NCBI GenBank assembly: GCA_964016885.1
Contig: OZ024742.1
Location: forward strand, 246,884,001 to 246,948,000
Origin: Eledone cirrhosa
Taxonomy: Eukaryota
Reading direction: 5' to 3'
DNA length: 64,000 nucleotides
Part shown: positions 27,035 to 64,000 of the stretch, one piece after another
Layout of the letters: each line of letters starts with the position of its first letter
Position numbering within the stretch: position 1 is the stretch's first letter
Notes under the pieces: model-generated
Told to the model about the DNA's origin: nothing
The model's database searches: none
What the model saw: only the letters and a program-made list of their open reading frames with translations
Program-made: the position numbers and the translations under genes

Positions 27035-27109
27035 TATATATATATATATATATATATAAATCAGGAAAGAAGGTTGACATGGTTTGCTATACAAAAAAAG
27101 GTTTAATCA

Positions 27110-27594: not shown

Positions 27595-27712
<118 letters not shown>

Positions 27713-28032
27713 ACATATATACACATGCATGTGTACATAGACACATACATACACATCAATATATTCAGTAATATATTCATTAAGTATACTATATCCTTCA
27801 CAAGTCTATACCACATAATTGTCTGTAAGTACCTCATCTACCAACAAACTTATTCCTTCTCAGCTGCTGCCATCATTTGATCCTAAATCCTAGTTTTTCT
27901 CAAATCACTACTACAATGTAACTTTACCTTCTTTTTGCCATAATTACAATTAGCACGCTTATCTCTTTGCATGTATGTATATTTTTGTACGAGTGTATAT
28001 TGATGTGTATGTATGTGTCTATGTACACATGC

Positions 28033-28116
<84 letters not shown>

Positions 28117-28486
28117 AAATATATGCGTATATTACTTCGTTAACCTCTGTATCTATTTAGCTTTGACAATGTTGTCCCACTCATGAATACTATTGATGAT
28201 GAAGAGAAAGACTGTAAACAGTAGCTTATCTTTAAAATTTAAAATTGATATACACTTCGATACTCAATACATGCCAAACGCTTTCTTTTGCCTCATGACA
28301 GCTAGTTTTACACGCCGTAACGTTAGATACATTATATACCCCCCACCTAAGTAATGTCAGGGTCTCCTTAAATAATTTATTGATAGCATTGTTGTAATTG
28401 TTGTTATTGTTCTAATTGGATGCCATTACTACTTCATATAGTAGCCTGTATATTCTTTTCTTGCCTGTGTATTTTCTTCATTCTCG

Positions 28487-28599
28487 CATGCTCCGAAGAT
28501 CTGACTGGTTATAATTTTGTATTGGCGATCGAGTAACGCGAAAATAAGCGAATAGCGATCTCTAGACCTGCCAGCTCAGTGAAACAAATGTAAGCTATG
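28487..28599 (+). ncRNA. pLTR hammerhead ribozyme with long stem II
   Basis: CATGCT-CCGAAGA-TCTGACTGG...CCAGCTCAGT-GAAAC-AAAT-GTA-AGCTATG. Confidence 0.7.
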
Positions 28600-28871
28600 T
28601 GATTAAACCTTTTTTGTATAGCAAACCATGTCAACCTTCTTTCCTGATTTATTATTACTCCAAGTGTTTACAACATAGGAATTACGGCATACCCGCAGCA
28701 TCACTATGAAAACGCCTTGTTGAGTCAAACCAAGCCAAGCGTTAATATCATCCACTACCTGGAATACCATAACTGGACTTTACCTTGGTGGACTGCATTT
28801 AACTATTATTTGTTACCCCGTATATTTAGCTCCCACCTGGTCGAGAAACCCCATTAACGCACGGCAACAAC

Positions 28872-31217
28872 ATGGAGAAGCACCATATAGGTATGTCACT
28901 GAAAAACATACCTGTACTATACACTGGGCATGATACGACGGACTAGTGATTTCATCCGCAGGGTCCGATGGAAAGCTTACCATTTCGATAAGGGACCGAA
29001 TACCAACAGAAAGGAATTTTCCAAGGAGAATTACGGGTTTAAATCCTGCAAAAACCCGCCAAACAACCCTGCACTCGATGCCTTCGAGCTGGACCTTATG
29101 AACATGATAAGTGAAACTAAATTTAAAAAAAGAACAAATCACAACAAATTGCAAAATGACTTAAATACATTACTTAAAAAACTAAAAGACACTAACGATC
29201 AAACGTATACTCTATGGACATTAACACATACAATAACTTTATTCAGCGTGAACTACATAAAAAATATAAAAAAACAAATGAATCTACACTCACCAGCATT
29301 AACATGGAGGGCCTCAAGATAGTTAATAAACTCGGAATTTCAGATAGGACCGAACCGCTAACCCCGTGCAACCCAACATTTAACCTGAAGGATCACAAAA
29401 ATAACTTTGAAACTAATCCCACCATTAGATTAATATGCCCATCCAAGTCAGACATAGGTAAAATTAGCAAGAACATTCTAGATAGGGTAATCGCACAAAT
29501 AAAGGGTAAACTAGAAATCAATTTATGGGGCAACACTAACGAGGCAATTAAATGGTTCAATAAAATACAAAATAGGGAGACGTGTAACTTCATACAATTT
29601 GATATAGACGACTATTATGCATCCATATCCCCAGCTACCCTAGATAAGGCGCTTATATTTGCCCAAAATAACTCTGATCTTACCCATGATGAGATTGAAA
29701 TAATAATAGCGGCTAGAACGACTATCATAAAATTCGAAAATAGCTACTGGGTAAGAAAGGATAGAATAAATAGCTTCGATATAATAATGGGATCAAATGA
29801 TTCTGCGCAAATCACAGATATCGTGGGGCTATTCATAGCACACAACCTACATAAGAAATTCAGTAACCTCCAAGGAGGAATTTATAGGGACGACACGTTA
29901 CTTATAGCTAGGAACCTAAATAACCAGAGCATGGAAAGACTAAGAAAAAATATTAGAATATTCTTCAAAAAACTAGGCCTAAGTATTACCTACGAACTAA
30001 ACCATAAGAAGGTAAATTTTCTAGATGTAACTCTAAATCTAAATACTGGATTAATAGAACCTTTCCACAAAAATAATGAAAATCTTGCCTACATTAGTTA
30101 CAACTCAAATCACCCCAAATCCATAATTAGATCCATAGCACGTAGTATATCCCTCCGAATATCCCGCTTATCCTCAAACCTAGAAATCTTTAACGAGCAT
30201 GCTGACTATTATAATGCAGCATTACGTAGGGCCGGTCATAAAGATAAACTGCAGTATATAGTGAATAAGGACAACGTAAACAATCCTAGTAATTACTACT
30301 CCAACCGCTTACATAATAATAGGAATAGCTTGACTAGACATAGGGTTAGATACGTAACACCTGGAGTAAACGGCCAAAACACTAATAACGTAAACCCAAG
30401 AAACAATAGAAGAAACAGACAAAGAAAATACCTATGGTTCAACCCTATATTCAACTACTCTATAAAAACTAGACTGCCCTCTACATTCTTTAAACTAATA
30501 GATAAACACTTCCCTATCTCGCATAGATATCACAAAATACTCAATAGATCTACTATAAAACTCTCATTCTCAACAGCAGCTAACATAGAATCACACATAC
30601 GCAAGATCAACCACAGAAATATCTCTAGTAAATCAACTGCACCTATACATAAGCACAAACACATCGCAACATCACAACCACAAGCGCATACAAACGCGCA
30701 GCAGCAAAATCCCATTGGGCATATATCACAACCCACTTATAACAGAGTACTAAACAGGAATGTAAAAGCTGCACAAAATAGCGCCTCAAACTGTAACTGT
30801 CACCTCCCAGATAGGTGCCCATTGGCGAACAGATGTCTCGATTCGAGCCTGGTGTACATGTGCACGGTCATCTCGGGTAACTCCACCTGGAATTACATAG
30901 GATCCACCGCGGGTTCTTTTAAAAAAAGATGGTATGTGCACAGACACTCAATGAAAAACCGTGCACTTATGGGTTCCACAACCCTCGCCAAAAAAATATG
31001 GGAATTGAAGGACAGCAACACTAACTACAGTATCAACTGGTCGAAGTTGTCGGCTGCTAAAACCTATAGTACAGGGATGTCCCACTGCGGGCTATGTGAT
31101 CTTGAGCTATTATATATCCTTAAAAATGTAAAAAGGCTACTTAACAATAAGTTAGAAAGATCTATCTTCTGCAGACATAGAATAGCCACTAAATTCATAA
31201 GATTCAAACCTCCGTGA
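28872..31217 (+). pseudogene. PLE reverse transcriptase + GIY-YIG endonuclease, two N-terminal frameshifts; 29214-31217 open
   Basis: SLKNIP, RVRWKA, YGFKS..PP, FDIDDYYASI, MGSNDSA, YRDD, FLDV, WFNP, CNC....CPL...CL, LVY...YIGST...FKKRW..H. Confidence 0.9.
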
Positions 31218-31529
31218 ACCGAACCAACATAACATAGCTTTAAATTAGGATAACTACTACCCACAGTAATATATTCATTAAGTATACTATATCCTTCACA
31301 AGTCTATACCACATAATTGTCTGTAAGTACCTCATCTACCAACAAACTTATTCCTTCTCAGCTGCTGCCATCATTTGATCCTAAATCCTAGTTTTTCTCA
31401 AATCACTACTACTTTACCTTCTTTTTGCCAGAATTACAATTAGCACGCTTATCTCTTTGCATGTATGTATATTTTTGTACGAGTGTATATTGATGTGTAT
31501 GTATGTGTCTATGTACACATGCATGTGTA

Positions 31530-31630
<101 letters not shown>

Positions 31631-32000
31631 AAATATATGCGTATATTACTTCGTTAACCTCTGTATCTATTTAGCTTTGACAATGTTGTCCCACTCATGA
31701 ATACTATTGATGATGAAGAGAAAGACTGTAAACAGTAGCTTATCTTTAAAATTTAAAATTGATATACACTTCGATACTCAATACATGCCAAACGCTTTCT
31801 TTTGCCTCATGACAGCTAGTTTTACACGCCGTAACGTTAGATACATTATATAGCCCCCACCTAAGTAATGTCAGGGTCTCCTTAAATAATTTATTGATAG
31901 CATTGTTGTAATTGTTGTTATTGTTCTAATTGAATGCCATTACTACTTCATATAGTAGCCTGTATATTCTTTTCTTGCCTGTGTATTTTCTTCATTCTCG

Positions 32001-32113
32001 CATGCTCCGAAGATCTGACTGGTTATAATTTTGTATTGGCGATCGAGTAACGCGAAAATAAGCGAATAGCGATCTCTAGACCTGCCAGCTCAGTGAAACA
32101 AATGTAAGCTATG
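32001..32113 (+). ncRNA. pLTR hammerhead ribozyme (3' copy)
   Basis: Identical motif to 28487-28599. Confidence 0.7.
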
Positions 32114-32333
32114 TGATTAAACCTTTTTTGTATAGCAAACCATGTCAACCTTCTTTCCTGATTTATTATTACTCCAAGTGTTTACAACATAGGAATTACG
32201 GCATACCCGCAGCATCACTATGAAAACGCCTTGTTGAGTCAAACCAAGCCAAGCGTTAATATCATCCACTACCTGGAATACCATAACTGGACTTTACCTT
32301 GGTGGACTGGATTTAACTATTATTTGTTACCCC

Positions 32334-32383
<50 letters not shown>

Positions 32384-35963: not shown

Positions 35964-36646
35964 TTCTTGTCTTTGTCCCCCCGCATCCGTTTGCGTTTGT
36001 GTATAAAGTTTGGTGTGTGTGTGTGTTCGCGTTTGAGTGTATGTATTTTTATTTTTGTACTCTATCTTTGTTTACTAGTGTGTGCTTATATGGTTTTGTT
36101 GTTATTGTACTTGTGTATATATATTGTTTGTTTGGGTATGGTTGTTGTTGTTATTCCATTCATCTTTTCTGTTTAACTTTGGTCTTCTTAGCTCTATCCC
36201 AGCTGCTTCTCTGTTTTGCCTACCTGTTGAGTGACTTCTATGTTTAGATATTATTTTAATTTCTATGTTGTCTATATTACCGTCATGTCTTTGTCTGGCG
36301 TGTTCGTATAGTACTGAACCGTGTTTTTTTTGTCCTTTTAGTTCCCCCCAGTGTTGGATGTGTCTTTCCATTTCAGTTGGGTCGCACATGCGGGACACAT
36401 TCTGTATTTTTAACCGGTGGTCAATCAATGATAAACATTGATTGCCAAATAACTTAACTATGGAGATATAAAAGATACAGAAGCGAAAACCAACCAAACA
36501 GTGAGTGTGTTCTGTTATTATTTCTAGCAATATTATTACAAGAATATGACCCTCCCCAAGTATAACAATATTTGTTCCGACACACGATTTCATATAAAAA
36601 ACCTTGCAAAACAAATATATATGTGCATCACTGATTTTTCGGTTTC

Positions 36647-36759
<113 letters not shown>

Positions 36760-37380: not shown

Positions 37381-37644
37381 GTATATGGCACTACGTCATC
37401 AGTTTCTAAATTTATAGCTGAAAGCTTTCAAAGTGTTTATTTATAAACATACCTTATAACGCTAGATATACAAGATACTCATACTTATATCTATACAGTT
37501 ATGTTAAAGCGAACACCTTAATTCTATTTTCTGGGCGATCCAGTCGATAGCTCTATATGCAAATAAGGTGAGCCAAATATATATACGCACACTATCCATT
37601 TTTTTAAAATTATATTTAGAAGTTATCAGGATACTAATAATTCT

Positions 37645-37726
37645 TCACCCGCTGACGAGCTAGAATTTTGGTATTCCTCTTCACAATTAATATTGCGAAA
37701 CAGTATTATCAAAACTGTCCGGGTGA
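37645..37726 (+). ncRNA. Canonical type I hammerhead ribozyme
   Basis: TCACCCG-CTGACGA-GC...GC-GAAA; stem III ACAGT/ACTGT; GTC 37717-37719; CGGGTGA. Confidence 0.85.
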
Positions 37727-37986
37727 CCGGTAGTTACCACAATTCTGGTTTGTATTTATTTTCCTTGATTTATTCTTAAATTGAGTCTAGCAAACCCTAT
37801 TGTCTGGAGTTAGTATTCTTTTCACCTTACCGAATCTGGTCCATTATGATTTGAACACATATATGTATATGTCTGTGTTCGGTTTTCTTTTTTGTTCATA
37901 TATATATATATATATATGAACTATATATATATATAGAGAGAGAGAGACAGAGAGAGAGAAAGAGGGAGAGAGAGAGATAGATAAAT

Positions 37987-38486
<500 letters not shown>

Positions 38487-39157
38487 ACTCATACATACCG
38501 CTATAGACATGTTCTAACGCTCCCTAACACACAGATGGGAACGCAGGTAACATGTTAATGAATAGCATAAGATCAAGACAACGGCTCCGTTATAAGAAGC
38601 CTGAAAGTTAATTAATATATTTAAACAGCCAATTAATCTAAATTACCATACTCTGTATAAGTCACATTATAGATGGATATTTTAAATCATTCCCTAACAA
38701 TAAAGTAAGTGGAACTTATTGAAAATAATTTGATTCCAGTCTTGGTAAAGACAATCCCACCACTTCTCAAACGCTGATTAGTCAATTTACACTAAAACCT
38801 CCTAGCGTTATATAAGTCCATTAACTCAACCGAACATGACCTCTCTCTGAAGAACTGCAATAATTTCTAATTTTTGGAGTATATATATAATCACCAACTT
38901 AGACCGTTACAGTCTATCAAAACACGTGGCAAAATTATTAATGAACAAGATATTGAATATAAAATTGAAATCTCAGATTCTGAAATGACTACACAATATA
39001 TATATTGCCTTCATTGAGGTGGGTTTATTTTGCGTTGGCCACCATGCCATGGTATTTCGAAACCCCACAGCATGCAAACTAAAAAAAAAAAAAATAATAA
39101 TAATAAACCCTGGGTAAATGTTGAGAGCCTAAGGCAAGTCTCTACACTTTAGTAATT

Positions 39158-41183: not shown

Positions 41184-43099
41184 TTATTCATCCAGTTGTG
41201 ATGTGACAGTGTCTCGAAAGTTGAGATGAATAACGCCCACCCCCCCACACCAATGTTAACACCAACAGTACATTAGGCTGTATCGCCAACAGCAGCAGCA
41301 GCACCGACAAGAAGTGAAAACCCAAATGGGAACACAAATAACAACAATACCAGCAAGAGTAGCAACAACATCACCAACAACAACATGAATAATGAAAACA
41401 CTATCATTAACAATGAAAAGCAGCAACACAGCAGCACCAAACAGAACGACAACAACAACAGTAGCAACAACAGGAGTACTTTCACAGCCACAGCGGCAAA
41501 GCGTCAAACGCTTTACAATTTCGACTTAACAAAAAAAATGAACGTTTAGCCCAGGCGAAAAGAAATATAACGGGAGAAAAGACCTGGCTCAACTTAAACG
41601 TCTTGGCAGAGGTAATGGCAGCAAACGAGAGGAGAATATTGAAATATCGATGCCTTTCAATGAAATCTCTAAAAGCAGAAACAGCCTCCGAAGCACAGGT
41701 TGAAGCGGCACCGAAATACCTCACCAATAATGACATAGAGTATATAGCAAGGGTCAAACAATTTAGGAACATCTTGGTGCTCTTCAGAATTGAGACCCTT
41801 GCTATCAAGCATTCTGTGGTCCCTTGAAAAACGGATCGAATAGTCATATACCCGTCATACATGACGAGGAGGTCAATAAGGGTCCGTGTTCTCAGGATTC
41901 TGCCAAGATTGGACTTATGGTGGCTCCTGGGATGCATGGCGTCAGAGAGCCCTAACACCCTCTTCTACGTCAAGTTTCCAAATAGGTAGGGGCGGTCCGG
42001 GACTGGTTTGAAGATTAATCTCCAAATTAGACCCGTAGACAAAACAAAATATTCCGAACCTCATCAAACTATCAGACGGATACGAAATCCAGGTAGTCAC
42101 GAAGGGCAAACGGCCGCACTGTTTTGTTTGTGGTGAAGCCACAAGCTGAAAACTGCAGGGGCCACAAACCTCCGTTGCTGCCAACACCGCTGCTGGAACA
42201 AAAAACACCACCACCACCTGCAGCAGCCATAAAGGAAACGGCAATAAAGGAAACGGCACCGATAGCAACAACCCCAAGGAACATTAAAGCCACCCAAGGA
42301 GTCACCCAAACAATCTCTCTCTTTCAAACACATACACAGAACAACACTCACACCCATAAACACACTCTCACACCACCATGACACAGTGTCGTCAGACACT
42401 AGTTCCTCCACACCTCCAAATGAAGATGAAGGGGAACCACAAAAACCAAAATTGCAAAAAATAAAAATTCGTCTCTACACCCATCAACAGGCACACAAAA
42501 CAGACCCACAGCAAACACAGACACACCCACAACTGTCAACGAAAAAAAAACAAAAAAAAAACAAAAAAAAAACAAATAAACATACCTTATAACGCTAGAT
42601 ATACAAGATACTCATACTTATATCTATACAGTTATGTTAAAGCGAACACCTTAATTCTATTTTCTGGGCGATCCAGTCGATAGCTCTATATGCAAATAAG
42701 GTGAGCCAAATATATATACGCACACTATCCATTTTTTTAAAATTATATTTAGAAGTTATCAGGATACTAATAATTCTTCACCCGCTGACGAGCTAGAATT
42801 TTGGTATTCCTCTTCACAATTAATATTGCGAAACAGTATTATCAAAACTGTCCGGGTGACCGGTAGTTACCACAATTCTGGTTTGTATTTATTTTTCTTG
42901 ATTTATTCTTAAATTGAGTCTAGCAAACCCTATTGTCTGGAGTTAGTATTCTTTTCACCTTACCGAATCTGGTCCATTATGATTTGAACACATATATGTA
43001 TATGTCTGTGTTCGGTTTTCTTTTTTGTTCATATATATATATATGAACTATATATATATATAGAGAGAGAGAGAAAGAGAGAGAGAGAGATAGAGAGAG

Positions 43100-43143
<44 letters not shown>

Positions 43144-43455
43144 AATTAGAATTTACCTCCGGACATGGCTGTATACAGATATGTGTTGGAATTTCGTATT
43201 TCTAAAGAAATACGGTATGTTTATAACGAGAAAAGTATATATTCTCGCCTGTTTTCAAAGTCCATCAGCGGCAGGGATCTAGCTGATGAGGACCTGTTCA
43301 GTTCGAAATGCATCGACGATTGTCTCCCTTGCTTTTACTGGGCACCACAAGGTGACGGTAGCCACTAGTGTTTTTGCATAGCTACGGCTTTCTAAATGCT
43401 TATTTATAAACATACCGTATTTCTTTAGAAATACGAAATTCCAAGACAGCGGATA

Positions 43456-43542
<87 letters not shown>

Positions 43543-45075
43543 TACTCATACATACCGCTATAGACATGTTCTAACGCTCCCTAACACACAGATGGGAACG
43601 CAGGTAACATGTTAATGAATAGCATAAGAAGCCTGAAAGTTAATTAATATATTTAAACAGCCAATTAATCTAAATTACCATACTCTGTATAAGTCACATT
43701 ATAGATGGATATTTTAAATCATTCCCTAACAATAAAGTAAGTGGAACTTATTGAAAATAATTTGATTCCAGTCTTGGTAAAGACAATCCCACCAATTCTC
43801 AAACGCTGATTAGTCAATTTACACTAAAACCTCCTAGCGTTATATAAATCCATTAACTCAACCGAACATGACCTCTCTCTGAAGAACTACAATAATTACC
43901 AACAACACCGACACAACCGCAAATCATGCCACACAAAAGAAAACACACAGGTGGTTAGTAAACTTTTCCTCTCTCTTTTAGCCTGGCAACATGGCCACCC
44001 TAAGAGTAGGATGTTTAAATATCTGTGGCCTGGGGTCTTCCTGGAAGGTGGGTCACCTCCTGAACGACCTCAGGTCACTAGAAATGGATGCTATTTCCCT
44101 CTGTGAGTACAGGATTTCCTCGACGAAGCCGCAGTCCGACAGGAAGTTCTTGGAGAATGGAATGTCTTCAAGTGCTCACTGCCTTCAGCAAATCGGGTAC
44201 TACGATCGGTGGAAATTCCACCTTAGCGTTCTATAGAGGCAGAGGGTAACTGGAGGGTAAAAGCGCCGAAGTCCCTACGGAGACCCTGGGCGTCGATGAA
44301 AATCAAGTAGCCAAACTTTTCCGAAGAACTTTCGGACCAGGGACCATGGATAACTTCCAGGAAACCCTGGCATAGCCCTGCTACCAGCAAGCATCGCCAG
44401 TTCAAGATAAACTCTACAGGTATGGAAGTTCCGTAAACCGGCCCTGTCCGAGATGAGTGCAGGGCGAAGAAACCGTCCGAGAAGGACACGTCAATTGTCC
44501 GCTGCTGTCACGTGTAGGACGGATCCGGCTATCAGTTAAGTCCTTCGTGAGGATTGCACGGCCATCTTTCTTTAGCCAAGAAGAATAGGCAGTTTTTATC
44601 TGCCATGGCGAAAGCGGTCGTGTGGTGAACACGTTTAAAAAGTCTGATGACAAGCACTTTCTTCTTTGGCGAAGCTCTGATTAACTATTTTAGGTATCAT
44701 TTAAAGGGGAAAATGAGGGTGGCGAGGGATCTGCTACCTTCCAAGCAGTTAGTTGAAAGATAGGTGAGAGAGGTGAGCATGGTCTGAGTGAATGGGCCTG
44801 CTCTGAGTATGCGCCTATAGATAAGAGGTGTAGAACTGGTAGAGCGCTCTTGCCCTGATAGTCACGATGACCGTGGCTTTTTGTAGGCTTTCGCCATGTG
44901 TGACCTACGGAAGACGCTGCCCCACCAATTCGGGAATTTACTTTGTTTGAATCTGTTTTCTATATCTCGTTATATGAAATTTTTGCACACTAAAACTCAC
45001 ACTTCTCCCATCCTCTTCTGTCTGTATCGGCCTTAATGCTTTTCTTCATGTAAGCCTTGCGTGGCTAATAGAAAA
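41184..45075 (+). mobile_element. Decayed Tx1/L1-clade LINE: ORF1 remnants 41250-42575, ORF2 start 43991, large internal deletion, 3' end 44250-45075
   Basis: GKRPHCFVCG knuckle; MATLRVGCLNICGLGS; 3' part homologous to 59750-60390; GTGGCTAATA end motif; follows (TTC)n 41087-41183. Confidence 0.8.
42576..43897 (+). repeat. Duplicated copy of 37443-38865 inserted into the LINE; includes HHR 42778-42859
   Basis: Direct sequence identity; LINE-like sequence resumes at 43898. Confidence 0.88.
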
Positions 45076-45560: not shown

Positions 45561-45611
45561 GATAATGATAATAAATAATAATAAGATTAAGAATAAATAA
45601 ATACACACACA

Positions 45612-45656
45612 AATATTGCTGATGAGTTGTAACAACAACGAAACTAGTTCAATATT
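45612..45656 (+). ncRNA. Minimal type I hammerhead ribozyme, copy 1
   Basis: AATATTG-CTGATGA-GTTG/CAAC-GAAAC-TA-GTT-CAATATT. Confidence 0.85.
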
Positions 45657-46078
45657 CCTTGTCTGGCCTTCTGGAGAATAGAGGGAAGGTGTTCCCCCGA
45701 AAACCAGTATGACTCTAAAAACCGGTTTGTCTGTGTGTTTACATACAGAATAGCTGGGCTGCTCACAGTAAAGCAACCAGTGAAAGACTTGTTACACCTA
45801 CATATGTATACGTGTGTGTATTCATATACACACTAGTATTTCAGTATGCATATGTAGATGTACATTTTTAACTTAATTGTTTAAGCGTCAGTCATACAAA
45901 AGTGAGTTACAAACGAAACGAAATTTAATTTCGTTTCGTTATTTGTTTTTATCGTCTCCGCTGAACCGGTGCGTACTCACACTCTATGCAAATTAGTCTG
46001 CCCACTACTAATTTTCATAGAAAAAGCATATAACCATATGTGCTTTTACAATTCTCCAGAAGGGCCGGTAGATTAGTA

Positions 46079-46123
46079 AATATTGCTGATGAGTTGTAAA
46101 AACAACGAAACTAGTTCAATATT
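46079..46123 (+). ncRNA. Minimal type I hammerhead ribozyme, copy 2
   Basis: As copy 1, one change in loop II. Confidence 0.85.
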
Positions 46124-46545
46124 CCTTGTCTGGCTTTCTGGAGAATAGAGGGAAGGTGTTCCCCCGAAAACCAGTATGACTCTAAAAACCGGTTTGTCTG
46201 TGTGTTTACATACAGAATAGCTGGGCTGCTCACAGTAAAGCAACCAGTGAAAGACTTGTTACACCTACATATGTATACGTGTGTGTATTCATATACACAC
46301 TAGTATTTCAGTATGCATATGTAGATATACATTTTTAACTTAATTGTTTAAGCGTCAGTCATACAAAAGTGAGTTACAAACGAAACGAAATTTAATTTCG
46401 TTTCGTTATTTGTTTTTATCGTCTCCGCTGAACCGGTGCGTACACACACTCTATGCAAATTAGTCTGCCCACTACTAATTTTCATAGAAAAAGCATATAA
46501 CGATATGTGCTTTTACAATTCTCCAGAAGGGCCGGTAGATAGGTA

Positions 46546-46590
46546 AATATTGCTGATGAGTTGTAACAAGAACGAAACTAGTTTAATATT
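46546..46590 (+). ncRNA. Minimal type I hammerhead ribozyme, copy 3
   Basis: As copy 1; G-U in stem I, stem II GTT/AAC. Confidence 0.8.
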
Positions 46591-46809
46591 CCTTGTCTGG
46601 CCTTCTGGAGAATAGAGGGAAGGTGTTCCCCCGAAAACCAGTATGACTCTAAAAACCGGTTTGTCTGTGTGTTTACATACAGAATAGCTGGGCTGCTCAC
46701 AGTAAAGCAACCAGTGAAAGACTTGTTACACCTACATATGTATACGTGTGTGTATTCATATACACACTAGTATTTCAGTATGCATATGTAGATGTACATT
46801 TTTAACTTA

Positions 46810-46894
<85 letters not shown>

Positions 46895-46913
46895 ATATAT
46901 ATATATGTATATA

Positions 46914-46993
<80 letters not shown>

Positions 46994-47073
46994 TACATAT
47001 ATATATACATATATATTCATATATATATATATATATATATACATATATACGTATATATATATATATATATTCA

Positions 47074-47638
<565 letters not shown>

Positions 47639-47747: not shown

Positions 47748-50700
47748 ATCTGTTGGTAGGTTTGTTATATCTGTTGGTAGGTTTGTTATTGTTGTTGGTA
47801 GGTTTGTTATAGTTGTTGGTAGGTTTGTTATTATTGTTGGTAGGTTTGTTATTGTTGTTGGTAGGTTTGTTATTGTTGTTGGTAGGTTTGTTATTGTTGT
47901 TGGTAGGTTTGTTATTGTTGTTGGTAGGTTTGTTACTGTTGTTGGTAGGTTTGTTATTATTGTTGGTAGGTTTGTTATTGTTGTTGGTAGGTTTGTTACT
48001 GTTGTTGGTATGTTTGTTATTATTGTTGGTAGGTTTGTTATAGTTGTTGGTATGTTTGTTATTATTGTTGGTAGGTTTGTTATGTTGTTGGTAGGTTTGT
48101 TATTGTTGTTGGTAGTTTTGTTATTGTTGTTGGTAGGTTTGTTATTGTTGTTGGTAGGTTTGTTATTGTTGTTGGTAGGTTTGTTTCTGTTGTTGGTAGG
48201 TTTGTTATTATTGTTGGTTGGTTTGTTATTGTTGTTGGTAGGTTTGTTATGTTGTTGGTAGGTTTGTTATTGTTGTTGGTAGGTTTGTTATTGCTGTTGG
48301 TAGGTTTGTTACTGTTGTTCGTAGGTTTGTTATTGTTGTTGGTAGGTTTGTTATAGTTGTTGGTAGGTTTGTTATAGTTGTTGGTAGGTTTGTTATTATT
48401 GTTGGTAGGTTTGTTACTGTTGTTGGTATGTTTGTTATTGTTGTTGGTAGGTTTGTTATAGTTGTTGGTAGGTTTGTTATTGTTGTTGGAAGGTTTGTTA
48501 TTGCTGTTGGTAGGTTTCTTATAGTTGTTGGTAGGTTTGTTATAGTTGTTGGTAGGTTTGTTATTGTTGTTGGTAGGTTTGTTATTGTTGTTGGTAGGTT
48601 TGTTATAGTTGTTGGTAGGTTTGTTATTGTTGTTGGTAGGTTTGTTATAGTTGTTGGTAGGTTTGTTATTGTTGTTGGTAGTTTGTTATTGTTGTTGGTA
48701 GGTTTGTTATTGTTGTTCGTAGGTTTGTTATTGTTGTTGGTAGGTTTGTTATAGTATACTTGTTGGTAGGTTTGTTATCGTTGTTGGTAGGTTTGTTATT
48801 GTTGTAGGTAGGTTTGTTATTGCTGTTGGTAGGTTTGTTATTGTTCTTGGTAGGTTTGTTATTGTTGTTGGTAGGTTTGTTATAGTTGTTGGTAGGCTTG
48901 TTATTGCTGTTGGTAGGTTTGTTACTGTTGTTGGTAGGTTTGTTATTGTTGTTGGTAGGTTTGTTATTGTTGTTGGTAGGTTTGTTATTGTTGTAGGTAG
49001 GTTTGTTATTGTTGTTGGTAGGTTTGTTATAGTATAGTTGTTGGTAGGTTTGTTATCGTTGTTGGTAGGTTTGTTATTGTTGTAGGTAGGTTTGTTATTG
49101 CTGTTGGTAGGTTTGTTATTGTTCTTGGTAGGTTTGTTATTGTTGTTGGTAGGTTTGTTATAGTTGTTGGTAGGTTTGTTATTGCTGTTGGTAGGTTTGT
49201 TATTGTTGTTGGTAGGTTTGTTATTGTTGTTGGTAGGTTTGTTATTGTTGTTGGTAGGTTTGTTACTGTTGTTGGTAGGTTTGTTATTGTTGTTGGTAGG
49301 TTTGTTATTGCTGTTGGTAGGTTTGTTACTGTTGTTCGTAGGTTTGTTATTGTTGTTGGTAGGTTTGTTACTGTTGTTCGTAGGTTTGTTATTGTTGTTG
49401 GTAGGTTTGTTATAGTTGTTGGTAGGTTTGTTATAGTTGTTGGTAGGTTTGTTATTATTGTTGGTAGGTTTGTTACTGTTGTTGGTATGTTTGTTATTGT
49501 TGTTGGTAGGTTTGTTATAGTTGTTGGTAGGTTTGTTATTGTTGTTGGAAGGTTTGTTATTGCTGTTGGTAGGTTTCTTATAGTTGTTGGTAGGTTTGTT
49601 ATAGTTGTTGGTAGGTTTGTTATTGTTGTTGGTAGGTTTGTTATTGTTGTTGGTAGGTTTGTTATAGTTGTTGGTAGGTTTGTTATTGTTGTTGGTAGGT
49701 TTGTTATAGTTGTTGGTAAGTTTGTTATTGTTGTTGGTAGTTTGTTATTGTTGTTGGTAGGTTTGTTATTGTTGTTCGTAGGTTTGTTATTGTTGTTGGT
49801 AGGTTTGTTATAGTATAGTTGTTGGTAGGTTTGTTATCGTTGTTGGTAGGTTTGTTATTGTTGTAGGTAGGTTTGTTATTGCTGTTGGTAGGTTTGTTAT
49901 TGTTCTTGGTAGGTTTGTTATTGTTGTTGGTAGGTTTGTTATAGTTGTTGGTAGGCTTGTTATTGCTGTTGGTAGGTTTGTTACTGTTGTTGGTAGGTTT
50001 GTTATTGTTGTTGGTAGGTTTGTTATTGTTGTTGGTAGGTTTGTTATTGTTGTAGGTAGGTTTGTTATTGTTGTTGGTAGGTTTGTTATAGTATAGTTGT
50101 TGGTAGGTTTGTTATCGTTGTTGGTAGGTTTGTTATTGTTGTAGGTAGGTTTGTTATTGCTGTTGGTAGGTTTGTTATTGTTCTTGGTAGGTTTGTTATT
50201 GTTGTTGGTAGGTTTGTTATAGTTGTTGGTAGGTTTGTTATTGCTGTTGGTAGGTTTGTTATTGTTGTTGGTAGGTTTGTTATTGTTGTTGGTAGGTTTG
50301 TTATTGTTGTTGGTAGGTTTGTTACTGTTGTTGGTAGGTTTGTTATTGTTGTTGGTAGGTTTGTTATTGTTGTTGGTAGGTTTGTTATAGTTGTTGGTAG
50401 GTTTGTTATTGTTGTTGGTAGGTTTGTTATTGTTGTTTGTAGGTTTGTTATTGTTGTTGGTAGGTTTGTTATTGTTGTTGGTAGGTCTGTTATTGTTGTT
50501 GGTAGGTTTGTTATTGTTGTCGGTAGGTTTGTTATTGTTGTTGCTAGGTTTGTTATTGTTGTTGGTAGGTTTGTTACTGTTGTTGATAGGTTTGTTATTG
50601 TTGTTGGTAGATTTGTTATTGTTGTTGGTAGGTTTGTTATTGTTGTTGGTAGGTTTGTTATTGTTGTTGGTAGGTTTGTTATTGTTGCTGGTAGGTTTGT

Positions 50701-51176
50701 TATTGTTGTTGGTATGTTTGTTATAGTTGTTTGTAGGTTTGTTATTGCTGTTGGTAGGTTTGTTATTGTTGTTGGTAGGTTTGTTATTGTTGCTGGTAGG
50801 TTTGTTATTGTTGTTGGTAGGTTTGTTATTGTTGTTGGTAGGTTTGTTATTGTTGTTGGTAGGTTTGTTATTGTTGTTGGTAAGTTAGTTATTGTTGTTG
50901 GTAGGTTTGTTATTGTTGTTGGTCGGTTTGTTATTGTTGTTGGTAGGTTTGTTATTGTTGTTGGTAAGTTTGTTATTGTTGTTGGTAGGTTTGTTATTGT
51001 TGTTGGTAGGTTTGTTATTGTTGTTGGTAGGTTTGTTATTGTTGTTGGTAAGTTTGTTATTGTTGTTGGTAGGTTTGTTATTGTTGTTGGTAGGTTTGTT
51101 ATTGTTGTTGGTAGGTTTGTTATTGTTGTTGGTAAGTTTGTTATTGTTGTTGGTAGGTTTGTTATTGTTGTTGGTA
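47748..51176. repeat. 21-bp minisatellite (GTTGGTAGGTTTGTTATTGTT), ~160 units
   Basis: Direct inspection. Confidence 0.97.
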
Positions 51177-55111: not shown

Positions 55112-56952
55112 ATGGCGGAAAAGATGGCAGACATGTCTGCCATTAGCTCTGCCACGCCCCCCAAGTCTGAAGAACAAAAAATAATTACAACAAAATTAGA
55201 CAATGAAACAAACAAAGAAAATGAAAAAACAAATGTTAAGGAAAATGAGCAAACGGAAAACAAACAAACAGAAAATAATACAAATAACAACAGGGCAACT
55301 TTCGCCCAGAAAACAAAACAATCCATTACATAAACACCAATTGACCTAACTGCCGCCAGAGAAAAACTGGCCGAAGCAAAGAAACACATTGTTTTGGGGG
55401 AGAACGGAATGTTTTCCATTAACCCCCCCCCCCCCAGAATTCAAGAAAGAAAGAACAGAGAACACAGTTCTCTTCAGAACTATACTGAACCAGACAAGAA
55501 AGCCAGCACAGCCCAGCCAAATGGAAATAGAGTTAGTCCTAAAAGACTATATGAAGAATATTCTCTTCATACGAAAGGACCGACTCTATGGCAGCATTTC
55601 GGTCCTAACAAGAGACAAGGAAACGGCTGAGAAGCTTTCCATAAGCCCACTCTCATCGACAACATACAGCTTCTATCCCTCCTACATGGGTAGAAGAACA
55701 CAGAGAGTAAAAGTAAAAACAATGCTGCCCACAATGGACTTCTGGTGGGCTATTGCTGGCTTCATAGACATGGGCGAAGACACAATGCTGTCAATGGGGA
55801 AGGCAACTGGAGATGCGTTCCTGGGAATGGGCCTCGACATACTAGTCCAAATGAGGCCCGAAAGAATAGCACAAATCCCGGATCGCATCGGGCTGGATGA
55901 CCTTACCCCAATAGACATAATTGTAGAGGGGAGAAGACCAGCATGCTATTTATGCATGGAAAGGGGACACGTTAAGGCTAACTGCCCGAAACGTATCCCC
56001 CAAAAAGGACTATTGCCCACACCCACCACAAACAGTACACCAACACCACCCTCCTCCAAAAATACACTAATACCACACACAGCAAACAAAATACAGACAC
56101 CACCAACCACAAACACAACACAAACATCACCACCACCAGCACCAAACACAAGCACGACACAAAAATCACCACCACCAACCACAACACAAACATCACCACC
56201 ACCATCACCAACCACAAGCACGACACAAACATTACCACCACCACCACAAAACCCATTCCAAACAAATAATAAAAAAAACAGTAACAAATCTACCCCTCCC
56301 GCAAAAAAAAACAACCACACAACACGTCCCTCCCACCTAGCGCTGAAGAGTTTCCCCCAACTTCTGAAGAAGAAGGAGGAGAAGCCTTCAGACAAGTTAA
56401 AAGAAAAAAAAGAAAACACACACCCAGCACACCACAAATAACCCACACACAAACACCAACTCCAATCAAAAACACCCCACCCTCAACAAACAAAAATAAA
56501 TCTGCGCCTCCCCTCTCCGAAAAATGAAAGCATCACAAAAAAAAGACGTTGCATTACACATATATAAATAAAGAAAACAAAAAACTGGTTAAATTAATAA
56601 ACAATAACCCTATGGTGCAGACCGAAGGGCCAAACTTTATCTCAACAGAGAACTTCACCCATTTAAAAATGATAAAGGTCCCTCTGGACCTTTATCGTTC
56701 CTTAAAAGAACAATTTAGACGGGACGTGAGCCCCCCCCCCCCCTGTTTAAAACCGTTGAATCGCGTCCTCTTGAAAGATTCCCCATAACCGCCCCTCTCC
56801 CTGACACAACTCCAAATACCCCAACCCCACCACACACGTGTACCCCCACACCACCACAAAACATCCCTCCACCCAACACACCTAATGCCATGGAAATTAC
56901 GCAACCCGGAGAGGTAAGTGCTTTTCTTTCTTCACTTTCAACACCCAAATAG
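55112..56952 (+). pseudogene. LINE ORF1 (gag-like zinc knuckle, P/T-rich tail); one in-frame stop and homopolymer frameshifts
   Basis: CYLCMERGHVKANCP knuckle; YPSYMGRRTQ shared with 62540 (FPTYMGKRTQ); TAA at 55331. Confidence 0.8.
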
Positions 56953-59900
56953 ATCAATTGAGAGTTGGCTGTTTGAACGCGCGTGGCCTGGGCTCAGCTT
57001 GTAAGCAAGCAAAGCTTCTAAGTGACCTCAGGTCACAAAGTATAGATGTGATGGTTGTTTGCGAGAGTCGGATCAGCAGCGTGAGACAGCTGGCGCCCGC
57101 CTTCGATGACTTTGAGATGCACGCATCTCTCTGTCAACCCGGAGGCGGGGGGGGGGGGGAGTTGCCGTACTGCTAGATAAACGTCTGACTCTCGACGTAC
57201 AGATTGTTCACTCGGACCCGGGGGGTCGATTACTGGTGCTGGACGTCGGAGGCGGTGAAGGCGGGGCTTTCAGACTGGTCGGTCTTTATGCTCCCTTCGG
57301 GGCGGAAAGAGCCGACTTTTTCCAGCGTCTGGAGACTTTTCTAGGAACGTTGCGTTCCCTGCTTTTAGTGGGGGACTGGAATGGAATCCTAGATGCGCGT
57401 TGGGACTATGCAGGGGCATGTCCCGATAGAGGGGGGTGTAGCAGCCTCAAGGGGTTACTCGATCGATTCGACCTGGTCGATAGATTTCGACTAGATTGTC
57501 CAACTGCGCCAACCTGGACCTGGGCAAACCGCAGTGGACAATCTAGATCGTACCTAGATAGGTTTTTGGTTAGGAGTAAGGATAGGGACGTATTTAGTTG
57601 TCCAGAACTGATCATGGTTGGCTATTCAGATCACAAATTAGTGACCTGCGTGGTCAACCTTGATAGAACGCATAGACAGGGTCCCGGTTACTGGAAGATG
57701 AACTTGTCCTTGCCGACAAAGAAAGATTACAGAAACCGGATTAGTAGCTTAGTTAAGATGCGGTTGACGGGAGCGATCGTCAACAGTAGGTGGTGGGTAT
57801 CTCTAAAGAGAGAGATTAGAGTAAGTTCGATAGGTTACAGTAAGGAACTAGCGGCAAATAGAAATAGGAAGGAAAGGGAGTTAACAGATAAACTAGAAGA
57901 GGCGATTAGGAGCGGAGACGTAGCCAGAGTGTTAGCGGCGAGAACGGCATTGAGCCAGTTCTTTGACGCGAAGCACGAAGGCTGCGTTGTCCGAAGTAAA
58001 ATACGTGCTTTAGGAAACGAGGGGACCAAAGCTGTTAGCTGGGCCCGCGTGACAGAAGCCAAGAGTGGGATTAAATCCACCATTCGGTCTTTGCGAGACC
58101 AGGATGGACGGGTGATCCTTGAACCTGAGCGGATGTGCGAGGCCTTTCAAAGGCACTTTGCTCGACTGTTCGGAGGGGGCGGGGGGCCGGACGGGGATGT
58201 GGACTTCGGTCCATACCTCGACGGTCTACCGCGTCTTTCGAGCGGCGAAGCGGAGTGCTGCGAAAGGCCAATCACAGCCACTGAAATCGGGGAAGCGCTC
58301 AGCCAATGCAGCAGACGCAAATCTCCGGGTCTCGATGGTCTACCATACGAACTTTATTTAGCTATGCCGGTCTTGTTCTCCGAACTCCTCGGGGCTGTCT
58401 ATTGCAACTGGCAACAGAACGGGAGAATTCCCTGTTCTGTGACCAAGGGCGTGGTCACGCTAGTGAGGAAGGACGAGAGCAAGGGGGACGACTTAAGTAA
58501 CTTTAGGCCCATAACTCTGCTGAATGCAGAGTTACAGATTTTGGCCAAGGTGTTGGCGAAGAGGTTGGCGCTTGTGGTGGGTGGTTTGGTGGGAGACGCG
58601 CAGACATGCGCTATCCCGTCCAGGTCCATTCACGACAACCTCCACCTCATGCGATACATCATAGAGAGGGTTGGCAACGAACCCGGCTTTGGTGGGGCCC
58701 TGATCAACTTGGATCAATCTAAGGCGTTCGATAGGGTCGACCATGGTTACCTGGATGCGGTGCTAGCGGCGGCGGGCTTCGGACCCGTTTTCAGGGGCTG
58801 GATTTCTGCCATGCACAGTGGCAACATCTACTCTAGGATTAAAGTAAACGGCTACCTCTCGGAGCCGTTTCAAATCACCCGGTCCATCAGGCAGGGGTGC
58901 CCCCTCTCCTCCCTTCTGTACGTATTGACTCTCGAGCCACTGCTGCGGAAGTTGGAGTTGCTGCGGGGCATACCCCTGGAACCGGGATTGCACAAAGCGG
59001 TCTCGGCCTATGCCGACGACGTAACAGTAATGGTGGTGGACGCCTCGGAAATCGGGGCGATCGCCACCCTACTGGGGGAATACGAAAGGCTGACGGGGGC
59101 TAGGCTGAACCAGGACAAGTCAGTCGGTTTGCAACTCGGAACGTGGAGGGGCAAACCGATGCCGTTAGACGGTGTCGTCGGGCGGTGGACGGAGGGCCCG
59201 GTGAAGCTGCTCGGGGTCTGGTTCGGACCGGACCTCCAGGTGGAGAAGAATTGGGGCGAGGTGACGAGCAGGGTGTTTGCGCTGACCCAGAAGTGGGCCA
59301 AGTGCACACTATCACTGAAAGGTCGGGCGGAGGTGACGAACGCTTACATAGCGTCCGTCATCTACTACCGCCTGACCGTCGTGCCTTGCCCCAAGGAAAA
59401 GCTCACCATCATGGAACGCATGCTCTTCCAGTTCCTCTGGAAGAAGCAGCCTCCCATGGTGAGGAGATCCATCTGCTGCCAGCACCCTTCGAAAGGAGGG
59501 CTGGGTATGCCGTGGCTGTTGATGCGTAGGCACGCATTGAGGCTACGGCATCTACAGGTATTCCTCAACGGTCAGCCGGTGTGGGCCCCGTTTGTGAGGC
59601 GAGCCTTCCCACAGCTCGTCTCGCTCACCGAACTGCAATCCTGGGTGAAGCAAAGTCCGAGAAAACTGGGCAACTGGCACACCGAGTGTGCCCAGGCGCT
59701 CACGGCTATCTGGCAAGCGGACCAGACTATCAGTGGAGAATCCACCTCGACATTCTATAGAGGGTTGGTGGCTAGCAAGGGCGACGACACCCTTGGAGAG
59801 TCGCTAGGCATGGAGGAGGACGAACTGGCCAGCCTGTTCGGTAGAACTTTCGGCCCGGGACCCATGGACAACTTCCAGAGGTCCCTAGCCTGGCAGTGTT

Positions 59901-60391
59901 ACCGAGGGGCTCTGCCCGTTCGAGAAAAGCTCTACAGACACGGGCGCCCGGGCAGGGATCCCGCGAAAAAGATCTGCCCCAGATGCGTGCGCGACGAGGA
60001 AACCGTTGCGCATGCACTGGTACACTGCCCGGGCGTTGCCGATCTGTGGGGCTACGTCGAACGACTGCTGTCGCGTGTGGCGCCGATTCGATTAACCGCC
60101 GAGTCTGTGGTGAACATCAAGCCGCCTCCTCCCTTCAGAAATGAAGCAGAGGCGGTCTTTCTGTGCGTAATAGCCATGATGAAAGAGGTTGTGTGGTGGA
60201 CGCGCCTGAAAGGTCTGAGGTCGGGTGACTTTCTCTCCGGCCATCACCTGGTTTACTTCTTCCGATACCACTTCGGAAGAAGGATCAGGATGGAGAGAGA
60301 AGTGCTTGGCCCCAGACAGTTTTATGAAAGGTGGGTGAAAGAAGCGAGAATGGCCCGTGTAAATGGGCCTTCTCTCTACATTGTTCTGTAG
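56949..60391 (+). CDS. LINE ORF2: APE endonuclease, reverse transcriptase, C-terminal Cys/His finger; one frameshift in G-run ~57147-57159
   Basis: LRVGCLNARGL, GDWN, YLDRFLV, SDHK, FRPITLLN, DQSKAFDRVDH, RQGCPLS, YADD, CPRC...ETVAHALVHC. Confidence 0.92.
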
Positions 60392-60622
60392 GTGAAGAAG
60401 TGAAGAGGAAAGGGGGAGCGCCTCCTCTCTGGGCTTCCCCCGCGAAAAGAGTTGCACACTTTTCGGGGGTATGTGCAATCCCCAACACGCCCCCTCCCTT
60501 TTGAGGACTTTTTATTGTTATATTATTATTGTTATTCCTTTTTTCTTTACTCGATTTATGTAAACTCCCCCACTGTGTAAATGTCCCCTTCTTTTGTGCC
60601 TTCGTGGCAAATAAATAGAAAT

Positions 60623-60690
<68 letters not shown>

Positions 60691-60691
60691 T

Positions 60692-61565
60692 TATAGAGGG
60701 TTGATCCGCAGCAAGTCTGAAAACGCGCTCGGTGAAACTCTAGACGTAGAGGAGGACGAACTGGCCAGTCTGTTCGGTAGGACCTTCCGCCCGGGACCAA
60801 TGGACATCTTCCAAAAGTCCCTGGCCTGGCAGTGCTACCGAGGAGCTCTACCAGTTCGAGACAAGCTCTACAGACATGGGCGCCCGGGCAGGGACCCTGC
60901 AAAAAAGATCTGTCCGAGATGCGTGCGAGACGAAGAAACCGTCGCGCACGCATTCAAACACTGCCCGGGCGTCACTGACCTGTGGGGCTATGTAGAACGA
61001 CTATTGTCGCGGGTGGGACCAATCCGGTTGACCACCGAGTCCATTGTCATGATCAAACCGCCACCCTCCTTCAAAAACGAAGGAGAGGCGGTTTTCCTTT
61101 GTGTGATAGCTATGGCGAAAGAGGTTGTATGGTGGACAAGCTTGAAAGGTCTGAGGTCAGACACCTTTCTCTCCGGCCAACAACTGATTCTTTTTTTTCA
61201 AATACCACTTTGGAAGAAGAATCAGGATGGAGAGAGAGGTGCTGTACCCCAGCAAGTTTTATGAAAGGTGGGTGAAAGTGGCGAGAATGGCCCGAGTGAA
61301 TGGGCCTTCTCTCTATATCAGCCTGTAGGTTGAGGAAAAAGAGGAGGAGAGGAAAGGAGTACAAACTCTTCGTACTCCTGGAGATGAGGGTTGCACATTT
61401 TTTCGGGGGTATGTGTTACCCATATAAACTGTCTCCCCCTATTGGGGAAAATCGACTAACTTTTTAAATTGCATTTGTGATAACCTTTTACACGTTTTTA
61501 TTGTATGTGAACTTCCCCCTTTGTATTTGTCCCCTTATTTTGTGCCCCTGTGGCTAATAAAGAAA
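60692..61565 (+). mobile_element. 5'-truncated copy of a closely related LINE
   Basis: Homologous to 59756-60622; followed by (TATC)n. Confidence 0.9.
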
Positions 61566-61589
61566 TATATCTATCTATCTATCTCTCTT

Positions 61590-64000
61590 TCTGTCTGACG
61601 TGTGGAACATCGCCGGTAAGATTTTTGTTAATTTCTATGCAAACAAACGAACTAATTGTTTGAAAAATCATAACACTTTGTAGATTAACCCCTAAGCTGA
61701 ATTGTCAGCTGGGTGGTAATCCCATTTTTCGCACCTGTAGGGGCGAACATTTTATTTTAAAAATTTGTTTCAAAATATCAGATTTTACAAACTAAATAAC
61801 TTGAGCAACACAAGAACGCTGGAGAACGTTAATAGAGAAAAGAGAGAGAAAGAGGCAGATATTAACGTTATATCTGCTTCTGCTACTATGGATGTCGCCA
61901 TAGATACAAGTGTCAACAGAGAGAAAAATATATTAACAGTTGAAAATTTTAAAATTTCTACCGTCGAAGCGGAGAAAAATAACAATAACACACAGGAAAA
62001 CACAGGAATTAAACCCATTAACATACATACACATGAAAAATACACCAACAACTCTACAGATACATATACACATAATGTTTCACCTCGACAAGGAACTGAG
62101 ATTTACAACAACGATAACAACAACAACAACAACAACAACAGCAACACCACACAAAAAAAAGAAAATGTTTTTCGTGGAAACAGTGAACAAAAAACAAGAT
62201 TTTATAAATCTTGATATCTCCAACGCAAGAGATATGCTCCAGCAAGGGAGAAAATTTGTAACTTTCGAAGAAAGAGGTGGGTTTAGAATTAACTCACCTC
62301 TTGAAATAAAGGAAGACACAATCCGCATATCAGTCACCTTTAGGACTGTGTCAAATTCCACAAGAAAGCCGACATTTGTTAACCAAGCAGATATAGAAGA
62401 TACTTTCAAGCAAATTCTAGCAAATGTCGATTTTCTCCAGCGAGGAAAACAATACGGAAGTGTTTCCGTACTGTTTAAAAGCGAGGCACTCGCCCCAAAA
62501 AACTCTGTGACACGAATGGTGTCAAAAGCATACACCTTTTTCCCTACATACATGGGAAAAAGGACACAAAAAATAAAAATAAAAAAACATACCTCCAAAC
62601 ATTAACATCTGGTGGATCTTGGCTGGCTTCGTAGAGCCAGAAACTGATATGATACTTTCGATAGGAAAATCTATTCGACAAAGGTGGGCGGGCACAGATT
62701 TGGAGATTCTGTTGCAAATGAAACCGGAGAGAATCTCCAAAATACCCGAAAGAGTCGTTATTGATAATAACAACAAAATAAACATTTCGGTAGAAGGACG
62801 AAAATTTCATTGCTTTCGCTGTGGTAGCACAGCTCACCTAAAAGCCTCTTGTCCACAAACACACAACAACAACATCATAAAAAAAACGCTATTACCAACA
62901 CCAACACCAAAACAACCACCACCACCACAAGTACAACGACAGACGAAACGAGCAACCACACCAAAACAAACAGACACTCAACCAACAACAACAGAAAAAA
63001 CAGAGACAACACCCCTGAAGAACACAGCCCCACTCCATTCCACTTCATCAAACACTACCACAAACACACATACCGAAACACCACCACCACACAAAATACC
63101 CTTACCCCACACACCTGACGATGATTATTCATCGACAGATGAAGCTGCTTCTCCTTCTTTAAGTGAAGAAGAGGGAGAACAGCAGAAATGTAAAAAAACA
63201 AAAAAAGAGACACCACAAAACCCCCCAAACTACAATCACCAACACCAACACACAACAACAGACACAAACAACAACACAAACAACACCACAGTCAAACATC
63301 CCCCTATCAGCAAAACCAGCACCAACACCACCCCAAACACAAGCACCCACCATAAAAAAGAAAACTCCCAGACGAACAACAAACTAAAACAACACAACAA
63401 AAACACAAACAACAATACGCATACATCAACACAAACAACAAGAGTTTGATGGAGGTCATCTACCAAAACCCCAAGATGTAGGCGGAGGGCAAAACTTTCG
63501 TCAAGGCAGAATCGACAGTTCTTCGATGCGAAACACAAAGGCTGCGTGGTCAGAAGCAAAAGACGTGCTAAGGAAACGAAGGAGCGAAAGCTGTCAGCTG
63601 GGCCCGAGTGGCGGAGGCAAAAAGTGGCAACAAGTCCACGATTCGGTCTTTGAAAGACCAAAACGGATGCGTGCTACTTGGCCCCAAGCAAATGTGCGCG
63701 GCCTTTCAGCGGCACTTTGCGCGACTGTTTGAGCAGAACGACGGTGAGCCGAACGGGGCAATGGACTTTAGTTCATACCTCGACGGCCTGCCGCGTCTCT
63801 TGAACACGGACACCGAGTTCTACGAAAGACTGATCACGGACACTGAGATACGGGACGCTCTGGGCTGCTGCGGGAAACGCAAGTCACCCGGTCTAGATCG
63901 TCTACCCTACGAATTTTATATAGGCATGCCGTACTTGTTCTCTGGCGTCCTCGAAGCCGTCTACTGCAATTGGCAGCAGAACGGGAGAATTCCCAGTTCT
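61590..64000 (+). mobile_element. Third, more divergent Tx1-like LINE: frameshifted ORF1 ~61889-63449, ORF2 lacking the endonuclease domain, runs off the window
   Basis: CFRCGSTAHLKASCP knuckle; QFFDAKHKGCVVRSK at ~63517 homologous to 57957; RKSPGLD.LPYE, YCNWQQNGRIP. Confidence 0.85.

Follow-up and report, generated by a model that had tools for sequence, protein, structure and literature searches.

The array at positions 45611-46814 of the window, the 64,000-nucleotide stretch of the Eledone cirrhosa genome analysed here (contig OZ024742.1, positions 246,884,001 to 246,948,000), is best explained as a single insertion, truncated at its 5' end, of a non-coding repeat family that is young and dispersed and belongs to the metazoan non-LTR retrozymes. 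We hold with high confidence that the family is a retrozyme and is mobilised by Penelope-like elements (PLEs): its insertions end at two fixed 3' positions, here called A and B, lie in TA targets and are flanked by target duplications of about 12 bp, which is the "tail" footprint of PLEs and makes PLE mobilisation well supported. That the complete chain of events has an RNA circle as its template is somewhat probable. The copy in the window is a partly decayed, one-armed member of the family.

The tandem array

TRF placed an array with a period of 467 bp and 2.6 copies (2.58 units, 98% matches) at 45611-46814, directly followed on its 3' side by a (TA)n tract (46814-47553). Between units 1 and 2 there are 7 mismatches in 467 bases, the GC content of the unit is 37% (0.37), and the longest stop-to-stop frame overlapping the units has 98 aa, so the units are non-coding. 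The preliminary description of this DNA, a tandem of 2.6 near-identical non-coding 467-bp units ending in (TA)n, was thus borne out, and the 3' end proved to be family end A. The same description noted the start of the array at stem I of the hammerhead ribozyme (HHR), but this is an incidental 5' truncation; 5' ends are scattered across the family, and we also rejected the stem I start as a mark of processing. The features of the array are as follows (window coordinates).

45611-46814, forward strand: complete insertion with a single arm and 2.58 tandem units; the 5' truncation falls at unit position 1 and the 3' terminus at unit position 270 (family end A)
45611-46077, forward strand: unit 1, 467 bp
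46078-46544, forward strand: unit 2, 467 bp
46545-46814, forward strand: partial unit 3, 270 bp, terminating inside the loop region of the end-A hairpin
45612-45656, forward strand: HHR 1, type I; cut predicted after 45649; loop 1 without its upstream strand
46079-46123, forward strand: HHR 2; cut predicted after 46116; variant loop 2, UAAAAA; top Rfam score, 37.1 bits
46546-46590, forward strand: HHR 3; cut predicted after 46583; stem II has one pair broken and stem I a G-U at its base
45650-46116, forward strand: predicted cut-to-cut monomer or circle, 467 nt, strongly self-paired (-157.4 kcal/mol, z -10.2)
45872-45885, forward strand: predicted small hairpin with family 3' end A (unit 268-274), unit 1 instance
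45885-45952, forward strand: "tail" of about 70 nt from end A to end B, containing a hairpin at 45912-45940, U-rich sequence and, at end B (unit 338-343), UUAU|CG
45984-46022, forward strand: hairpin with ATGCAAAT, which we take to be octamer-like; kept in the sister family, altered in a 7-locus sub-lineage
46814-47553, no strand: (TA)n tract at the 3' junction, the target of the insertion
45600-45610, reverse strand: 11-nt flank match to the reverse complement of the unit, which may be what is left of an inverted piece or, given its low complexity, a chance match

Elsewhere in the window we observed an intact-looking non-LTR retrotransposon at 55350-60388, with a 363-aa frame followed by a 1091-aa frame (endonuclease and RT motifs by eye), and a partial second copy of it at 60581-63446. 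Long GT-rich minisatellites with 17/52-bp and 21-bp units and a strong strand skew lie at 6007-10309 and 47751-51176, and a 1.4-kb direct repeat (37443-38865 and 42576-43897, 91% identical) carries two CUGANGA...GAAA motifs per copy (37652/38198, 42785/43283).

Hammerhead ribozymes and covariation

An HHR of type I layout stands at the start of each unit, with stem I AAUAUUG/CAAUAUU, the core CUGAUGA, stem II GUUG/CAAC closed by a 6-nt loop and a 3' part composed of GAAA, the palindrome ACUAGU and a U at the cleavage position, the cleavage triplet being GUU. The cores begin at 45619, 46086 and 46553 and hence the predicted cuts are spaced by 467 nt, as had been proposed; the palindrome reported at stem III was also found in the units (AACUAGUU). 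The claim that every unit holds the same HHR stood for two of the three copies, which match the exact pattern (0 matches expected from shuffles), but not for copy 3, where GUUG/GAAC breaks one stem II pair and UAAUAUU places a G-U beside the cut, two changes that are both weakening. In copy 1 the upstream strand of loop 1 is lost and flanking sequence stands in its place. The Rfam model Hammerhead_HH9 (RF02275) matched all three copies over its whole length with 37.1, 29.9 and 29.8 bits (E 3e-07 to 7e-05), yet these scores lie under the gathering score of 52, and the Rfam scan of the whole window gave no match at gathering level. The motif had been called minimal; with a helix I of 6-7 bp, a helix II of 4 bp, a loop 2 of 6 nt and no unpaired base before stem II it is instead a canonical-type retrozyme HHR and departs from PLE min-HHRs.

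Structure was assessed by covariation and by folding. Among 17 aligned HHRs 95.9% of the cells were paired, compared with 76% in shuffles and 22-47% in slid controls, and two-sided change occurred at 10 of 13 HHR pairs, with compensatory changes in stems I and II, an outcome reached in 0 of 500 shuffles, a count that is not readable as a probability since the 17 HHRs represent only about five lineages. The covariation on these few independent lineages supports the view that the HHR structure has been kept by selection. Loop 2 is constant as UAANA(A/G), and the cleavage triplet is GUU, GUA or GUC across the alignment. GUU is a weaker cleavage triplet than GUC; our literature search returned no cleavage rate for the GUU triplet. 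The cut-to-cut monomer was markedly stable in its predicted fold (opposite strand z -8.8), and in the circle fold opened at the cut site HHR stems I and II were predicted to be retained. For the energetics of the dimer the ACUAGU palindrome duplex alone was computed, giving -4.8 kcal/mol. Cleavage favoured in the dimer is a fair prediction for the HHR of this family; the earlier claim of an obligate dimer, with a stem III able to close only between two HHRs, overstates the case. In the available text of PMC7229834, axolotl HHRs with a weak helix III are reported to reach 6% (HHR_Amex1) and 22% cleavage in monomeric form, dimers being cleaved much more efficiently and those of HHR_Amex1 far more so.

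Dispersal in the genome

The DNA search of the genome, in which 40 of 631 candidates were scored, returned 226 matches, and the full-length ones among the matches listed were 96-100% identical and spread over many contigs. The exact HHR pattern occurred 5,256 times in the whole genome (reversed control, 0); as the first 100 of these matches fall at 28 sites, the family occupies, by rough estimate, about 1,500 sites. Copies range from monomer to multimer. The genome measures 3.0 Gb and is rich in microsatellites, which fits the cephalopod origin proposed earlier. A relaxed HHR pattern added 14,114 matches genome-wide (control, 2), and the first 100 of them all lie in sister families, whose units are about 60% identical to the window unit and share its predicted architecture; the alignment of these units showed two-sided change in 23 of 91 pairs. 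The checks suggested in the preliminary description, multimeric copies, variable 5' ends and (TA)n 3' junctions, were all answered in the affirmative. It had further named confinement to a single locus and absence of HHR-preserving covariation as arguments against itself; the unit is multimeric, dispersed in thousands of copies and has covarying HHR stems, so neither argument holds.

One sister family (L127-L156, L169-L198) has units of 427-517 bp that are about 60% identical to the window unit, more than 14,000 HHR matches, a U-U as the basal pair of stem II and, within the unit, a (TA)n of varying length. Adjoining an array of this sister family (L139/L140, G000:C1 at about 5.544 Mb) we observed a two-armed 310-bp tandem with the same HHR architecture, in which GC replaces UA at the centre of the stem III palindrome (ACGCGU) while the palindrome is kept.

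Two fixed 3' ends

Insertion ends were surveyed at 66 sites. Of these, 39 came from the best-hit list, which is biased to the subfamily of the window, and the other 27 from the pattern matches listed first for contig C1. Site L032, whose flanks duplicate those of L031, was left out of the end survey; L025, nested in an older copy, was counted as one-armed and left out of the variant analysis. Of 111 outer 3' ends, 50 fell at A (unit 259-275), 57 at B (unit 325-344) and 4 elsewhere; 107 of the 111 therefore lie at two positions, about 270 and about 342, separated by about 70 nt, and 89 of the 111 are TA-flanked. Two arms joined head to head were found at 45 of the 66 sites, with the combination A+B at 41, A+A and B+B at none and one atypical end at 4, so that every two-armed site with both ends at A or B is A+B (41/41). 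A short stub of the opposite end type was present at 5 of the 21 one-armed sites.

The inner (5') ends are scattered over the unit, and the insertions combine microsatellite or AT-rich targets with 5' truncation. Eleven inner ends printed at position 1 are mostly an alignment-boundary artefact, the flanks continuing to unit position ~437-460. Target duplications of 12-14 bp were seen at six informative sites (L011, L019, L036, L037, L054, L083) of 39 examined; they are visible where the target interrupts the TA alternation, and the remaining sites were pure TA, ambiguous or had no duplication. By eye, copies of the sister family end at homologous places. At L034 and L060 the inverted part begins at unit position ~57 and the forward part at ~53-59, which resembles ordinary twin-priming inversion and is unlike A+B.

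The partner element

The two-end tail rule and the duplications of about 12 bp support the earlier proposal that a PLE RT copies the unit. Craig et al. 2021 (PMC8557442) describe inverted PLE insertions in which only one end bears a tail. In vitro, both DNA strands were cut and extended by a purified PLE protein, with internal starts at two sites that agree with the genomic ends (PMC11167929). Furthermore, three Hydra-type PLE families of the same genome, with a CxCX5C linker that agrees with the published description of the clade, possess two fixed TA-flanked ends that are 173, 88 and about 91 nt apart. On the strength of these published tailed inverted insertions, the two-site starts in vitro and the two-ended local Hydra PLEs, a PLE enzyme is the likely driver. 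We favour the Hydra clade as partner on two points, T-rich ends and abundance; one Neptune-type family likewise inserts in TA. The unit holds no ORF with RT and GIY-YIG endonuclease as an autonomous PLE does, and a comparison with the pLTRs of six families, five Hydra-type and one Neptune-type, found no sequence that they have in common with the unit. None of the three Hydra tails measured is about 70 nt long, and the unit tail and two PLE tails showed no evident shared shape in their folds.

The window itself contains a Hydra-type PLE at 27056-32342 with partial-tandem and inverted pLTRs and an open frame at 29196-31214 (RT, CxCX5C linker, GIY-YIG). This element has many copies with 94-97% aa identity and 808-aa frames, and its two ends are 173 nt apart in (TA)n; the canonical HHR pattern was not found in its pLTR, and Pfam returned no family for its protein. 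HHR-like motifs of another type lie beside a GIY-YIG remnant at 2842(-), 23920(+), 35869(-) and 36105-36704(-) and are related to a Neptune-type PLE elsewhere in the genome that has a 1218-aa frame and, in one copy, a tail of about 60 nt. Back-to-back pairs of HHR-like motifs at 14214(-)/14331(+) and 24473(-)/24571(+) are as expected of small inverted PLE-type insertions.

Circular or linear template

The predicted cut site is traversed by 74 of 82 arms, and of 111 inner ends not one is found 5 nt or less from it. This excludes a cut linear monomer and leaves a circle, an uncut multimer or monomers joined by jumps as the template. According to the mechanism that we propose, a tandem transcript would cleave itself after GUU into 467-nt units, with higher efficiency where the ACUAGU palindromes of two HHRs pair with each other, and the monomers would be ligated into circles. 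A PLE protein, probably a dimer and probably of the Hydra clade, would then make a staggered cut of about 12 nt in a TA microsatellite and extend both DNA 3' ends, one from site A and the other from site B, the RT reading past the HHR, at most over many units. Head-to-head joining of the two cDNAs would follow, whereas at the window locus one arm would have been joined to the flank; a stagger of about 12 nt with both 3' ends serving as primers would yield both the duplication and the two arms. Certain long arrays may have been lengthened afterwards by DNA-level duplication. Points that weigh against this mechanism are the lack of an autonomous partner among the six PLE families compared, the single cleaved Xenopus retrozyme dimer out of nine in vitro, the weaker GUU triplet and the strong folding of both strands of the unit. 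In its most specific form, asymmetric twin-priming on an RNA circle by a dimeric PLE-type enzyme with an approximately 12-nt stagger and active sites starting at A and B, for up to 17 rounds, the proposal is tentative and falls a little short of an even chance. If true, it would provide genomic evidence for the rolling-circle route of animal retrozymes, so far only proposed, and the partner PLE would recognise the shape of the RNA and not a common sequence.

The element and the PLE machinery would be the same if the template were instead an uncut linear read-through transcript, with DNA-level duplication renewing the length and the HHR serving only for release or trimming. Unprocessed RNA was the main and preferred substrate of a PLE in vitro, and HHR mutants were without effect on insertion there (PMC11167929), which suits such a template. 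So do the period-2 variant patterns at L016, L036 and L050 and the period-3 pattern in one arm of L095: these cannot come from a monomer circle alone and need multimer templates or DNA-level duplication (at L036 a 13-bp insertion alternates along the array). A sub-lineage of seven loci and 69 copies, defined by a triple A>G variant in the octamer, points the same way, for its units are nearly all identical and no arm exceeds the 17-unit arm already present in the genome. Against an uncut linear template stand the array-wide variants private to one site among the 65 sampled, 12 of 18 of which are present in both arms and imply that the copying passed at some stage through a bottleneck of one unit; two long arrays, with 9 and 18 full units, are likewise uniform throughout their two arms. 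These variants also lean to A>G (7 of 18 compared with 9 of 139 unit-private variants; Fisher p 0.0005, weaker without a cluster of three changes), the HHR and its closing rod are conserved across families that are about 60% identical, and circles have been shown for coral, mussel and axolotl retrozymes in published work. Taken together, we consider the linear template rather unlikely and favour the circle over it, if not decisively.

Two further readings dispense with a self-propagating retrozyme. Duplication at the DNA level in certain arrays could suggest an ordinary satellite with a relic HHR, spread by unequal exchange or circular DNA; the end anatomy, with 3' ends that are fixed and strand-polar, the A+B rule, the TA targets and the target duplications have largely refuted this, RNA-type covariation also opposes it, and we regard it as highly improbable. 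Scarcely more credible, and very unlikely in our judgement, is that the unit represents the pLTR or 3' end of an autonomous PLE, its copies being truncations and no non-autonomous family propagating itself. Published PLE ends do carry HHRs and tails, published Xenopus retrozymes match pLTRs, and our own comparison covered six PLE families only. Yet at none of the 66 sites does a unit run into coding sequence, the PLE fragments beside unit copies being separate neighbouring insertions, while the arms run from unit into unit for up to 17 copies and the HHR has canonical and not min-HHR proportions.

Several other candidates were considered and set aside. The triple A>G variant, which every unit of one array carries, was rejected as single-molecule proof of a circle: it is the one such variant that was traced through the whole genome, and it is inherited at seven loci. 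The success of this sub-lineage with three changes in the octamer weakens the octamer as a required promoter; no promoter was identified in the unit. RNA-editing scars are a weak candidate, with 27 A>G and 12 T>C distinct events but 7 and 3, respectively, among those array-wide variants that are private to a site (p 0.22). On expression, contigs from four runs whose kind is not stated contained neither joints nor ends, which speaks neither for nor against it.

Relation to described retrozymes and PLEs

[quoted passage not shown] As described in the accessible portions of these two papers, metazoan non-LTR retrozymes resemble the window family in their non-coding tandems with one type I HHR per unit, a GC content below 50%, thousands of copies, target duplications of more than 4 bp, a self-paired monomer with stems I and II free and co-occurrence with PLEs. 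All the features of metazoan retrozymes that sequence can test are present: at least two consecutive HHR units, non-coding, dispersed, of low GC and with duplications of more than 4 bp. Helix III of the axolotl HHR_Amex1 (PMC7229834) is similar, with one pair and a palindromic tetraloop cap. The unit of 467 bp slightly exceeds the 150-450 bp of PMC7229834 and is within the 51-972 bp of bioRxiv 10.64898/2026.07.22.740005. The window family differs from these retrozymes in its GUU triplet, and the accessible text of the two papers describes neither two fixed ends nor two-armed insertions; of the Xenopus retrozyme dimers one of nine was cleaved in vitro according to the published account. The plant LTR retrozyme, with type III HHRs in LTRs, PBS and PPT and a 4-bp duplication, is a different arrangement from the type I HHR, tandem units and duplication of about 12 bp seen here. 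In the mostly open-access main texts searched, we found no report of a cephalopod retrozyme or of an A+B footprint on any retrozyme; a squid genome paper merely counts hammerhead matches (235).

With the Hydra-clade EN+ PLEs, as presented in PMC8557442, the unit has in common the tandem and inverted structure, the tail on one end, the (TA)n targeting and the HHR upstream of the tail; in contrast, it has no ORF, and its tail of about 70 nt is longer than the 30-40 bp given there and shorter than the 88-173 nt measured in local Hydra families. The PLE min-HHRs (Cervera and de la Pena 2014, PMC4209133) are alike in the type I core, the palindromic helix III region and the proposed cleavage as dimers, whereas their helix II has 7-8 bp and their helix I 4-5 bp against 4 bp and 6-7 bp in the unit. 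A further parallel is the Poseidon PLE of Anolis studied in vitro (Frangieh et al. 2024, PMC11167929), which likewise shows two internal RT starts at the genomic ends, AT-rich targets and cutting and extension of both strands. Its HHR cleavage needs the protein and is dispensable, and its starts are in an AC-rich stem-loop, whereas the non-coding unit has one end at a small hairpin and the other behind U-rich sequence.

The mechanistic marks are useful at the level of the family, the copy in the window not being the best locus for their study. What the family adds is evidence for the PLE link at the level of single insertions, that is two fixed ends, a strict A+B rule and duplications of about 12 bp. 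Moreover, it predicts exact RT start sites on a short non-coding RNA, so that the PLE mechanism, and circular against linear templating, can be tested with purified protein.
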